48,223 nucleotides of DNA, taken from the IMG/VR virus record IMGVR_UViG_2897375277_000006. One strand, 5' to 3'. A program made the position numbers. Positions 16,543 through 19,500 of this stretch are shown here, in pieces (within the stretch, counting starts at the first letter, position 1; the number at the start of each line of letters is the position of its first letter). The stretch comes from a virus (lineage: Duplodnaviria; Heunggongvirae; Uroviricota; Caudoviricetes).

Positions 16543-19500
16543 GATTCATAATCAGGTTCGCTTCGGCGAGCTTTTTTTATATATGTTCGCCCGATGCATA
16601 TCAACAAAATCTCCTGTGTGGGGAGTTTGTGGAGTGATAGGTGTGATTTTCTGTGTGGGTAGATTGCTTTTGGGAGCTGGTACATCCAAACAAAGGTGCG
16701 TCGCAATGTCCGGTATCTTGGGTAAAAAGTTTGTAAGGATGCAACTCTTTAAAAGCGGGAACTGACTCAGATGGTAATTAACGTGCCTTATTTGGTTATC
16801 TGTACGGATGGTAAGGTTGACCAGGAAGAACGAAAGATCCGATAAGTGATTGCCAGAGTATTACCACTTCTTGTGCGCTGGATTGTGACATTATTGTGGT
16901 CTGAGATAAAAATCGGTATAAGTAATGCTTGATTTTTTCATTGGATGTTTATTAAAAAGAGTGTCGTATGGTGAGCTTTCTTGCTCGTGGGACATCGGTG
17001 TAGGTATGTGGAGCTGTGACATCGATCGAACTCACCGCGAGAGACACCATACATATATCCTAATGTTATTCCATATTATCTTCATTCCTGTTATTGCAGG
17101 CTGTGCATCGCGCAGCTTTTTTTTTTATTCAGATTGCAAAGAGATGATTATTCTGTACCTTTTCTGCTCTGTTTTGTGTCGTTATCCGTGCTTACGGGAG
17201 AAGAATGAAGATTAGTAAATAAAGTATTATCCCTTGGCAATTGACGGTGTGATCGTGGTGGGGGAGGCACGAATCGCTCTACAGTATCGTAATAAAAAAA
17301 CGCCAGTACAGAGGGTAATGGGAAAATAAATCTGCGCTGGCGGAGGAAGGCCCTCAGTGGAGAAGCTATATATTAATTTCTTTTTTATTTGATAGTAATT
17401 GTCAAGCATATATTCCTATTGATTAGGATATATTGTTATCAACCTTATACTGATTTATGTATACGCCATTGCGAATAATATCTATTTTATTGTAGATATA
17501 ATCGTTATACATGGATTTTTATACAGATAACCTGATAACAACTTTGATAATAAAATCAGTGTAATAAATAAGCCTCTACTCAATTGTTGATGCGATGAAG
17601 GGGGGGCTGTGCTCTGAAAAAGTCAGTATGTACGGGAACAGAGACTCTTCCTAAGTTTTAACCGGAAAATATTTCAATTGGATATGCTTATATTTGGTTG
17701 GTGTTGACGATTATGCGAAATCGTCAACACCGGTCCGATAATAGGATACCTGGGGCATCAGTAATTAACTGGTGGCTTTTTATTGTTGTCAACTTCCGGA
17801 TAACGGGAGACGGGGTATGTACCAGATGGAAAAAATCACAACAGGTGTGTCATACACCACGTCAGCGGTGGGGACGGGATACTGGTTACTGCAACTGCTG
17901 GACAAAGTCTCCCCATCCCAATGGGTGGCAATAGGCGTGCTGGGTAGTCTGGTGTTTGGCCTGCTGACGTACCTGACAAACCTTTATTTCAAGATAAAAG
18001 AAGATAAGCGTAAGGCTGCGAGAGGTGAATAATGTCGCCATCATTACGCAAGGCTGTTGCTGCTGCTATTGGTGGTGGGGCTGTTGCCATAGCGTCTGTG
18101 CTCATCACTGGTCCGAGTGGTGACGATGGTCTGGAAGGTGTCAGCTACATACCATACAAAGATATCGTTGGCGTATGGACTGTATGTCACGGACACACCG
18201 GAAAAGACATCATTCCCGGTAAAACGTATACCGAAGCAGAATGCAAAGCCCTCCTGAATAAAGACCTTGCCACGGTCGCCAGACAAATTAACCCGTACAT
18301 CAAAGTCGATATACCGGAAACAACGCGCGGCGCTCTTTACTCGTTCGTTTACAACGTGGGTGCTGGTAATTTCAGAACATCGACGCTTCTTCGCAAAATA
18401 AACCAGGGCGATATCAAAGGCGCATGTGATCAGCTACGGCGCTGGACATACGCTGGCGGTAAGCAATGGAAAGGGCTGATGACTCGCCGTGAGATTGAGC
18501 GTGAAGTCTGTTTATGGGGGCAACAATGAGCAGAGTTACCTCGATTATCTCCACACTGGTTATCTGCATCATCGTCTGCCTGTCGTTGGCTGTTAATCAT
18601 TACCGTGATAACGCCATCTCCTACAAAGAGCAGCGCGACAAAAATGCCAGAGAGCTGAAACTGGCGAACGCGACAATTACTGACATGCAGGTGCGTCAGC
18701 GTGATGTTGCTGCACTCGATGCTAAATACACGAAGGAATTAGCTGATGCGAAAGCTGAAAATGATGCTCTTCGGCGCAAGCTTAATAATGGTGGTCGGGT
18801 GCTCGTCAAAGGCAAATGTCCTGTGCCATCCTCAGCCAAAACCTCCAGCGCCTCCGGCATGGGCAATGATGCCACCGTCGAACTCTCTCCAGTTGCTGGA
18901 CGAAACGTTCTCGGTATCAGAGATGGAATCATCAGTGATCAAGCCGCATTAAGGACGTTGCAGGAATACATCAGGATGCAGTGCTTAAAATAATTTTAAC
19001 TTCACTGAAATTTAACAAGTGACTTTCAGGAAAATGCCTCGCAGAAGCGGGGCTTTTTTATGTCCTCAGTAAATGCGCTTCACACGCGCGACTTATGAAC
19101 ACAGAGCCTTTCAGGATGACCCTTGAGGATGCCGGTTTGGTTATCGGTGCCTTTCTGTGGGCCGGAATCCTGTGTGACAAGGTTCATCACTAAAAGGTAA
19201 TTACCGATGAATTATCCAACTATCGTTGACGGCATTGATTTCAAAGAACTGGTTTTTATTACCAACAATGACCCTGTCACCGATTCATTTATGGTGGCGA
19301 AAGCATTTCGTAAGCGACATGACAACGTTGTGCGTGATGTAGAAAGAACTATCGCTGCTTGTCCTGAAGAGTTTGATACAAAACTCAATTTTGAGGTTTG
19401 CTATAAAAACAATGAGTTACAGAATGGTAAGCCACAAAAATTCTATCGGCTACGTAAGGATGGGTTGATGCTTTTGGTTATGTCCTACACCAAAAAAGAA

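Follow-up and report, generated by a model that had tools for sequence, protein, structure and literature searches.

The interval at positions 16543–17816 of IMG/VR virus record IMGVR_UViG_2897375277_000006 is an AT-rich segment of about 1.27 kb that separates the tRNA genes of a lambdoid prophage from its lysis genes; the whole stretch of 48,223 nucleotides is referred to here as the window. We conclude that it is very probably an eroded cargo ('moron') module of the standard lambdoid or Shiga toxin (Stx)-type late operon, in which two divergent small RNA (sRNA) genes of known prophage families, one PasD-like and one Esr41-like, are the best-preserved parts. The order in intact relatives is tRNAs, tciA (TerB), tciB (DUF3927), a rightwards PasD sRNA, nanS-p, a leftwards Hfq-type sRNA, DUF1378, DUF826, a terminator and the holin, as read from phage 434, Escherichia coli prophages, phages JLK-2012 and Evi (the latter with an esterase-less layout), prophages PP2 and PP4 of E2348/69, and one further locus (L029). 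Every protein gene of the module has been destroyed in the window by frameshifts, internal deletions and A/T-skewed substitutions, which explains why open reading frames (ORFs) are lacking, why the G+C content is low and why an estimated 3.6 kb has shrunk to 1.27 kb.

Collinearity with the late-operon cargo module

Several observations bear on the coding content of the interval. First, the original prediction that it is ORF-poor and AT-rich holds, with no credible ORF present and a G+C content of 0.27–0.34 at 17300–17700 compared to about 0.5 in the flanking tRNA and lysis genes; the longest ORF (96 amino acids, 16925–17215) crosses a terminator hairpin. Secondly, a six-frame translation of 17127–17765 finds nothing at E≤0.1 among 5.8 billion proteins, and the six frames of 16543–17830 give no Pfam match at E≤1. 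Thirdly, a six-frame search of PHROGs returns a fragment of a TerB ('tellurite resistance') family (PHROG 632, E = 0.0045) and a single match at 0.2, and nothing else.

The relationships of the interval are clearer at the DNA level, for which we searched 5,426 complete E. coli genomes, 50,697 phage records and 72,556 plasmids by megablast and blastn. Phage 434 and many E. coli prophages match the flanks at about 96% identity, and these relatives carry DUF3927/tciB and a 1.85-kb nanS-p (SASA) esterase gene between the membrane-protein gene and the holin. Within the interval, high-identity matches in the E. coli genomes and phage records are confined to the last 65 nt (17752–17816), the first 186 nt are 73% identical to phage JLK-2012, and the middle 1 kb has no match of at least 65% identity in the E. 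coli, phage or plasmid collections other than weak ones of 60 nt. The key lead to relatives was a weak collinear blastn match to phage Evi. Exact-pattern scans, of IMG/VR with 21–32-mers or with an inverted repeat of variable loop and of metagenomes, add only two further copies to the lineage, both prophage fragments 99.7% identical to the window (L004, from IMG/VR, and L007, from a metagenome; hereafter the sister copies), and a scan of a genome collection with the inverted repeat gives two chance matches only, in unrelated metagenome-assembled genomes. One of the IMG/VR patterns finds nothing, L004 having a different sequence at that place.

Alignment to lambdoid late regions, which had been proposed as a check, shows the interval to be collinear with their cargo module, and the accompanying search for gene remnants recovers a frameshifted tciA and other cargo remnants and no stx. 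The original prediction had placed the interval where stx sits in Stx phages, and as a map position this is right, the interval following Q, tR' and the tRNAs and preceding S; there is no detectable stx remnant, since six-frame searches find no RIP or SLT-beta domain in Pfam at E≤1 and none in PHROGs, and the DNA matches to Stx phages cover 17752–17816 only. The alternative suggestion of a decayed cargo gene is borne out by remnants of tciA, tciB, the start of nanS-p, DUF1378 and DUF826.

At the left, 16359–16812 can be aligned with JLK-2012 (74%) and Evi from the tRNAs through the terminator and leader into the 5′ part of tciA. The tciA start codon at 16706 and the first nine codons survive (MSGILGKK, compared to MFGIFGKK in TciA), after which a deletion of 13 nt shifts the frame. 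A downstream segment, KRELTQMVINVPYLVICTDGKVDQEERKIR*VIARVLPL, carries a stop and matches both residues 21–47 and residues 106–137 of TciA, indicating an internal deletion. Intact TciA is a Pfam TerB protein encoded by an ORF of about 143 codons, of which the window keeps fragments only, and on its sequence the tciA of the window is a pseudogene. A sigma-70 promoter that had been proposed here, TTGACC (16817–16822) and GATAAG (16841–16846) separated by 18 nt, is present in letters; we regard it as a chance match, since it lies within the tciA remnant, is not conserved in relatives, lacks the final T of the second hexamer, and is not listed by a promoter scan, which reports three promoter-like sites in the region compared to 8.7 expected from shuffles. 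Only the stop-codon region remains of tciB, which is about 160 nt long when intact.

The stretch 16869–17202 is 62% identical to that running from the end of tciB to the start of nanS-p in phage 434 and E. coli prophages. Here ACGGGAGAAGAATGAAGATTAGTAAATAA of the window aligns with ACGGGAGAAATTCGATGTCGATTAAACAT at the nanS-p start of 434, E2348/69 and Evi. The blastn match reaches 17202, the nanS-p ATG is at 17205, its frame stops after five codons, and the remainder of the 1.85-kb gene is gone, with none of it found by tblastn of the full esterase against the interval; most of the esterase is likewise missing from Evi and E2348/69 PP4. More generally, tblastn with the NanS-p, TciB, DUF1378 and DUF826 proteins finds nothing convincing in the interval, and a DGVIVVG match to TciB at 17243–17299 (E = 0.033) does not fit the gene order and is taken as chance.

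The right part is explained by the closest relatives, among the matches listed, of the window's Esr41-like RNA, variants V8 and V9 (loci L029 and L036), in which this RNA lies between a nanS-p-type gene and the genes for DUF1378 and DUF826 (Pfam E-values of 1e-39 and 8e-36 in L029), followed by the holin. The segment 17291–17461 is 68% identical to L029 (E = 5e-16) and spans the sRNA, its promoter and the start of DUF1378. The alignment to DUF826 further right scores 29, compared to 10.3 ± 1.2 (maximum 15) for 300 dinucleotide shuffles. Both start codons are lost, that of DUF826 being replaced by GTG and then TAA, and no similarity to either protein is left at the amino acid level by tblastn. 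The G+C content of this decayed part is 33%, compared to 52% in L029, and across all of the pieces aligned to relatives there are 86 GC-to-AT and 37 AT-to-GC differences, the polarity being assigned without an outgroup; this skew fits decay under A/T-biased mutation.

The two sRNA genes

The original prediction had suggested that the interval could hold a small RNA, and the PasD-like gene answers to this; the leftwards Esr41-like gene had gone unseen. [quoted passage not shown] The gene order pasD, esterase, pasA/pasC and holin, and Rfam matches to Esr41 near PasD, have also been described (Zhu, Shabalina, Storz; bioRxiv 10.64898/2026.05.13.724894).

Similarity, position and structure all identify the PasD-like gene. 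An nhmmer profile of 12 PasD-type sequences, built without the window's lineage, matches 16953–17124 over profile positions 2–185 of 186 (E = 4.1e-16), and blastn gives 74.7% identity to PasD2 over 99 nt (E about 1e-11). The gene is rightwards and lies between the tciB/DUF3927 and nanS-p positions, as in the PasD family. The distance from TTGAyT to the 5′ end of PasD is 37 nt in PasD1, PasD2, Evi, L064 and the window alike, and we infer that this segment of the window is the promoter of the PasD-like sRNA. The second terminator-like hairpin and 10-nt T-run remarked on previously are indeed there (stem 17098–17118, T-run 17117–17126) and constitute the PasD-like terminator, 89% identical to that of PasD2. 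In an RNAalifold consensus the 5′ end of PasD pairs with a segment about 80–110 nt downstream, and in the window's copy 14 of 14 pairs of this long helix form, with no broken pair and three of them arising through double changes (C-G to U-A); the covariance check that had been recommended for the hairpins finds compensatory change in this helix, and the Esr41-like family fold covaries also (see below). The single-sequence fold has a free energy of −49.7 kcal/mol (z = −2.7).

In the phage 434 record (OL657226.1; L003 3699–3887), a 62-residue 'putative membrane protein', CPT_434_70, overlaps a sequence 100% identical to PasD2, terminator included. This is likely a mis-annotation over PasD2, since the compensatory pattern and alignment gaps of lengths not divisible by three (among them one of 14 columns relative to PasD2, which would break the frame) argue against a 62-residue protein over PasD.

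The Evi match drew attention to a minus-strand hairpin and seven Ts at 17294–17342. No Rfam family passes its threshold anywhere in the interval at gathering or relaxed settings, with Esr41, CyaR and STnc100 appearing as weak leads only; at this site neither Esr41 (18.6 bits, E = 0.17–1.1) nor CyaR (21.7 bits) reaches its gathering score, and the alignment covers UUCUCCA, a small hairpin and a CGCCrGC...GCyGGCG terminator. A degenerate pattern of these shared features is found in at least 120 IMG/VR contigs, with ten sequence variants among the matches listed; one of these (V4) falls within coding sequence and seems to match by chance, and the window's variant occurs, among the same matches, only in the window and its sister copies. 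A covariance model of seven relatives, including the O157 Esr41 (in SpLE1, next to iha) and leaving out the window, has its top match in the window at 17290–17377 (−), with 48.4 bits and an E-value of about 2e-10. The same model gives 54 bits for O157 Esr41 and 36–38 bits for variants V2 and V3, and does not report PasA (L009) or PasC (L011) at E≤0.001; a second match in the window, at 16462–16583 (20 bits), is spurious, being tRNA-Gly and its terminator.

Conservation of structure is evident across this family. In its alignment 92.8% of cells pair, compared to 30–52% when the partners are slid, and both partners change in seven pairs, a number that none of 500 shuffles attains. The seed columns TTCTCCA are invariant, and in the minimum-free-energy fold (−19.8 kcal/mol, z = −3.8) the seed is unpaired and lies 5′ of hairpin 1, in which GAGG/CCUC covaries with GGGG/CCCC. 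The terminator forms 11 of 12 pairs and is followed by seven Us, at least six being expected. Among prophage relatives the promoter comprises TTGACA, 16 nt, and then TATAGA, TATAAA, AATAAA or TTAAAA (the spacer is about 17 nt in O157 Esr41), with some 26–28 nt from the −10 element to the seed, including a 5′ hairpin. The sister copies have an extra 6-nt tandem duplication (TACTAT) that brings their spacer to 16 nt.

The sRNA Esr41 (EcOnc14) binds Hfq and represses chuA, cirA and bfr (PMC5286369), acting on chuA at its ribosome-binding site (RBS) (PMC9002310). We note that E2348/69 PP4 carries a member of the family, with a model match at L010 2111–2207 (−), equivalent to NC_011601 1060610–1060706, inside the hypothetical coding sequence (CDS) E2348C_1013. 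Fragments from RIL-seq, in which interacting RNAs are ligated and sequenced, at 1060613–1060672 (−), filed under E2348C_1013, coincide with this match; they form 263 chimeras with the entC 5′ untranslated region (UTR) and 537 with the nlpD-rpoS spacer, as well as others with the dnaK 5′ UTR, and the abundance of the RNA falls 7.5-fold without Hfq. The CDS is probably spurious and its RNA unnamed. This member is an abundant Hfq-bound RNA filed under a hypothetical CDS, and its entC leader partner fits the iron role of Esr41.

A number of observations weigh against reading these as preserved sRNA genes within a collapsed module. At the position aligned with the PasD seed UGUGAG (target motif CUCACA) the window has UGUUAU, and the Evi-type PasD variant likewise differs there; STnc100 (Rfam RF02076), to which PasD is related, scores 12.9 bits (E = 5.6, 16936–17093) against a gathering score of 47; and a C-to-T change relative to the sister copies places a G-U wobble in the PasD-like terminator stem, which is followed by ten Ts in the window and eight in the sister copies. 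The Esr41-like RNA, at 18.6 bits against a gathering threshold of 102, is not filed under RF02676 and is treated only as a divergent relative. Its terminator stem has one mismatch, its promoter spacer is 10 nt long where the family has TTGACA, 16–17 nt and an A/T-rich −10 element, and the 5′ hairpin (GAUAUGU..ACAUAUC, or GAUGC..GCAUC in Esr41) is absent from the window and the sister copies, the helix having collapsed in the model alignment. That alignment was fitted to the model, which biases the covariation test somewhat toward structure. About 290 nt of the interval (17462–17532 and 17648–17751), as well as the inverted repeat, have no identified homolog. Finally, the lineage comprises three near-identical copies in the collections searched, so that covariation within the window's own lineage is impossible and selection within it is not measurable.

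Some of these observations suit a harsher reading, that the whole interval is dead DNA, both sRNA genes included, and that preservation of the RNAs reflects short length and recent ancestry. The neighboring genes are all wrecks, A/T-skewed substitutions occur even inside the sRNAs, the C-to-T change lies in the PasD-like terminator stem, and the Esr41-like gene has its 10-nt spacer and no 5′ hairpin. We nevertheless consider this unlikely, because the PasD-like helix is kept by three double compensatory changes with no broken pair, the PasD-like promoter keeps its exact spacing, the Esr41-like RNA has an invariant seed and a covarying hairpin 1, both sRNA terminators fold well and keep their U-runs, and the sister copies have the canonical 16-nt spacer. 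The 10-nt spacer and missing 5′ hairpin, set against 16 nt in the sister copies, indicate that the Esr41-like gene is probably weakened in this particular prophage. Selection on the RNAs would fit their lesser erosion compared to the protein genes; short target size could also explain it.

If expressed, the PasD-like RNA would be about 160 nt long and rightwards, consisting of a long stem at the 5′ end, a single-stranded A/U-rich part and a Rho-independent terminator that carries a U-run. By analogy with PasD, Hfq would bind it, and it would base-pair with mRNAs by means of the segment immediately ahead of the terminator; because this reads UGUUAU instead of UGUGAG, its targets should differ. 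The Esr41-like RNA would be about 75–85 nt and leftwards, its anti-Shine-Dalgarno-like UUCUCCA being accompanied by a small hairpin and a U7 terminator. By analogy with Esr41 and the EPEC copy recovered by RIL-seq, it may act on ribosome-binding sites to repress mRNAs, including those of iron-uptake genes. Given a promoter spacer 6 nt short and the missing 5′ hairpin, it may be weakly expressed or silent. The 6-nt spacer polymorphism between near-identical prophages offers a natural test of promoter function.

These findings do not overturn current understanding, and their value is of a different kind. An empty-looking, AT-rich stretch of a late operon becomes readable as a collapsed cargo module in which sRNA genes are less eroded than protein genes, and two prophage sRNA families of attaching-and-effacing E. 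coli relatives gain divergent members, one with a changed seed. The Esr41-like family also proves to be widespread at the nanS-p/holin junction, in at least 120 IMG/VR contigs.

Hairpins ahead of the holin and the genomic setting

Of the two hairpins close to the holin, one is conserved and the other peculiar to this lineage. The sequence 17752–17816 is 95% identical to 565 E. coli genomes and contains a hairpin and T-run about 40 nt before the holin ATG. The same arrangement is present in all 20 of the distinct upstream-of-holin sequences among the fetched loci (the window at 17756–17782 compared with L001, L008 and L012–L130), and the phage 434 record annotates it as a terminator. The arms vary by lineage yet stay complementary, e.g. 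GACCAUCGG..CCGGUGGUC, and the differences look compensatory; the window's copy contains a single mismatch, located where homology to other prophages picks up again. Together with those following the tRNAs and PasD, this hairpin would be a plus-strand terminator read through by Q-modified polymerase, and without Q the three would insulate the lysis genes.

The second is a perfect inverted repeat, described originally as having 12-bp arms; the repeat is present and perfect, with arms of 13 bp and coordinates one base off those given. It is the longest hairpin-type repeat in the whole window, and folds with −26.2 kcal/mol on the plus strand (z = −5.7) and −21.9 kcal/mol on the minus strand (z = −7.0). 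It is present once in the window, lacks a T-run and matches nothing in Rfam, occurs in public collections only in the two near-identical prophage copies besides the window, and has no equivalent at its place in 19 other upstream-of-holin variants. It is therefore lineage-specific and unexplained, and may be either debris (a local duplication in inverted orientation, for instance) or an RNA or DNA element peculiar to the lineage; that it is functional we think doubtful. The earlier idea of regulatory sites for the lysis genes thus survives in the conserved terminator and not in the inverted repeat, for which such a role is unsupported in the absence of any counterpart.

Two related proposals give the repeat a larger part. 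The first has it as a newly evolved cis element, for example a hairpin for RNase III or for stability, or a palindrome to which a protein binds, setting the amount of late or read-through transcript that arrives at the lysis genes, with the seed-changed PasD-like RNA separately retargeted to a new function; this we regard as improbable. We give slightly less credence to the second, in which the AT-rich 17400–17750 and the repeat together form a cis-regulatory element of the lysis cassette (e.g. a late-transcript hairpin that is processed by RNase III or has a stabilizing effect, a palindrome recognized by a protein, or a silencer bound by H-NS) or an undescribed RNA. A perfect hairpin of 12–13 bp is far beyond chance in 1.3 kb (expectation estimated at less than 1e-3), this one is the strongest in the window, extends as plus-strand RNA to about 19 pairs with G-U, and lies 86 nt upstream of the holin start, and the sequence 17127–17817 folds better than 20 shuffles on both strands (z = −3.6 and −4.7). 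However, its restriction to three near-identical copies and its absence from the other holin-upstream variants, as well as the want of a second copy, a U-run or an Rfam match, speak against both a cis element and an undescribed RNA, and the flanking DNA is decayed DUF826 sequence. That the interval instead encodes missed small proteins, either the 96-residue ORF noted above or a hydrophobic one of 33 residues (17482–17583, minus strand), is scarcely credible, for although these ORFs exist, phage 434 is annotated with its 62-residue protein over the PasD region, and tblastn of that protein finds 42% identity over 38 residues in the window, the longer ORF passes through the terminator hairpin and T10, the gaps in the PasD alignment are not multiples of three and its compensatory changes are RNA-like, PasD is an Hfq-bound sRNA by experiment (PMC8550237), and no frame matches the protein collection or Pfam.

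The collapsed module and its surroundings are listed in Table 1. The interval is flanked by Q (Pfam Phage_antiter_Q, 1.7e-91) and a P21-type holin (Pfam Phage_holin_2_1, 1e-32). The first tRNA of the array, at 16233–16308, is called Met (CAT) by ARAGORN; in Stx-type phages we take the first tRNA here to be of the CAT-anticodon ileZ type, specifying Ile after lysidine modification. The strong terminator that had been placed after the tRNAs is there (−10.4 kcal/mol, z = −3.7), and its hairpin is kept in JLK-2012 and Evi. Next to it, a tciA leader of about 130 nt is conserved in JLK-2012 and Evi although tciA is dead in the window; it contains a G/U-rich direct repeat within 16609–16666 (16609–16629 and 16646–16666), has no Rfam match over 16580–16705, and could be a structured 5′ UTR or other RNA.

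Table 1. Features of the interval and its surroundings, in window coordinates.
Feature	Position	Strand	Basis or details
Upstream genes and signal, in order			lpxR-like gene, antiterminator Q, tR'-like terminator (15214–15235), membrane-protein gene
tRNA array	16233–16542		Met-CAT, Arg-TCT, Thr-TGT, Gly-TCC
Intrinsic terminator after tRNA array	16554–16579	+	Stem 16554–16573, T7 16572–16578; terminator scan
tciA upstream leader	16580–16705	+	About 73–80% identical to tRNA-to-tciA spacer of JLK-2012 and Evi
tciA pseudogene (TerB-domain, 'tellurite resistance')	16706–16880	+	DNA alignment, tblastn, PHROGs
tciB (DUF3927) stub	16881–16932	+	Stop-codon region GCTTGA only; collinear with tciB ends of 434 and Evi
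Putative PasD-like sRNA promoter region	16929–16965	+	TTGATT ... TATTAAAAA ... +1; TTGAyT spacing
PasD/EcOnc13-like sRNA gene (STnc100-related)	16966–17126	+	nhmmer, blastn, consensus fold
nanS-p (SASA sialate esterase) leader, RBS, first five codons	17127–17222	+	DNA alignment
Esr41/EcOnc14-like sRNA gene	17290–17377	−	Covariance model, Rfam sub-threshold, fold
Esr41-like terminator	17342–17294	−	Stem 17342–17301, U7 17300–17294
Esr41-like hairpin	17355–17343	−	GAGGGCCUUCCUC
Esr41-like seed	17364–17357	−	UUCUCCAC
Esr41-like promoter remnant	17378–17405	−	TTGACA 17405–17400, 10-nt spacer, AATAAA 17389–17384
DUF1378 decayed start	17410–17461	+	Within 17291–17461 alignment to L029
DUF826 decayed start region	17533–17647	+	66% identity over 119 nt to L029
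Perfect 13-bp inverted repeat	17700–17731		Arms 17700–17712 and 17719–17731; 6-nt loop
Holin upstream region	17752–17816	+	Hairpin 17756–17774, T5 17778–17782, holin RBS
P21-type holin	17817–18032		
Further downstream genes			Signal-anchor-release (SAR)-type endolysin, Rz, Rha

Several other candidates were considered and set aside. A CsrA sponge, or an AgvB-like mimic of a GcvB target, in the 16609–16666 repeat was dropped, the sequence being conserved tciA leader; a large structured RNA of the GOLLD/ROOL type beside the tRNAs has no Rfam match, and the DNA there is that of decayed genes; and a hok/sok-type toxin encoded as a small hydrophobic minus-strand ORF found no support. At the right end of the window, an ORF at 46901–48223 (−) is about 92% identical to the E. 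coli type III secretion effector gene nleA. Because of this ORF, and because the middle 1 kb of the interval is absent from the complete E. coli genomes, the sequences suggest that the host is not a typical E. coli and belongs to its attaching-and-effacing relatives, Escherichia albertii for example.

Comparison with known systems

The interval is most readily compared with the cargo module of phages 434, JLK-2012 and Evi and of Stx-type prophages, with which it shares gene order and collinear flanks, and, with Evi, the loss of the esterase; it differs in that its protein genes are all inactivated and its G+C content is about 33% compared to about 52%. The PasD-like gene agrees with PasD1 and PasD2 of EPEC PP4 and PP2 in map position (after tciB/DUF3927 and before the nanS-p start), strand, promoter spacing, the 5′ long-range helix and the type of terminator (GGCUGyGCAUnGCGCrGC and a U-run). 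The window's copy is only about 62–75% identical to these, the middle of its 5′ domain is shorter, and its seed reads UGUUAU. PasD1 and PasD2 are structurally related to STnc100, for which the window has the low score given above.

The Esr41-like gene shares with Esr41 of O157 SpLE1 and its prophage relatives the UUCUCCA seed, the small G/C hairpin, TTGACA at −35, and a CGCCrGC...GCyGGCG terminator followed by U7 and then AU, and, as in the prophage relatives, it is leftwards between the end of nanS-p and the holin. Esr41 itself differs in its locus, which is SpLE1 next to iha and not a late operon, while the window's copy lacks the 5′ hairpin, has the 10-nt promoter spacer, and has a longer terminator stem with an 18-nt loop, a form common to the Evi, V5 and V8 variants. 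PasA and PasC (homologs of EcOnc51 and EcOnc52) occupy the same slot, leftwards between the esterase and the holin, and have a related terminator (GCCAGCG...CGCUGGC, U7, AUUAUG), but their 5′ parts are unrelated and have no UUCUCCA seed. We note that the long form of PasA (236 nt; L009 5236–5500 (−), equivalent to NC_011601 743264–743499) ends at a second terminator, GCCAGCG..CGCUGGC, U7, AUU. Because the PasA, PasC and Esr41-like terminators are of one type, the leftwards sRNAs of the esterase-holin slot may share a terminator module to which unrelated 5′ parts are joined.

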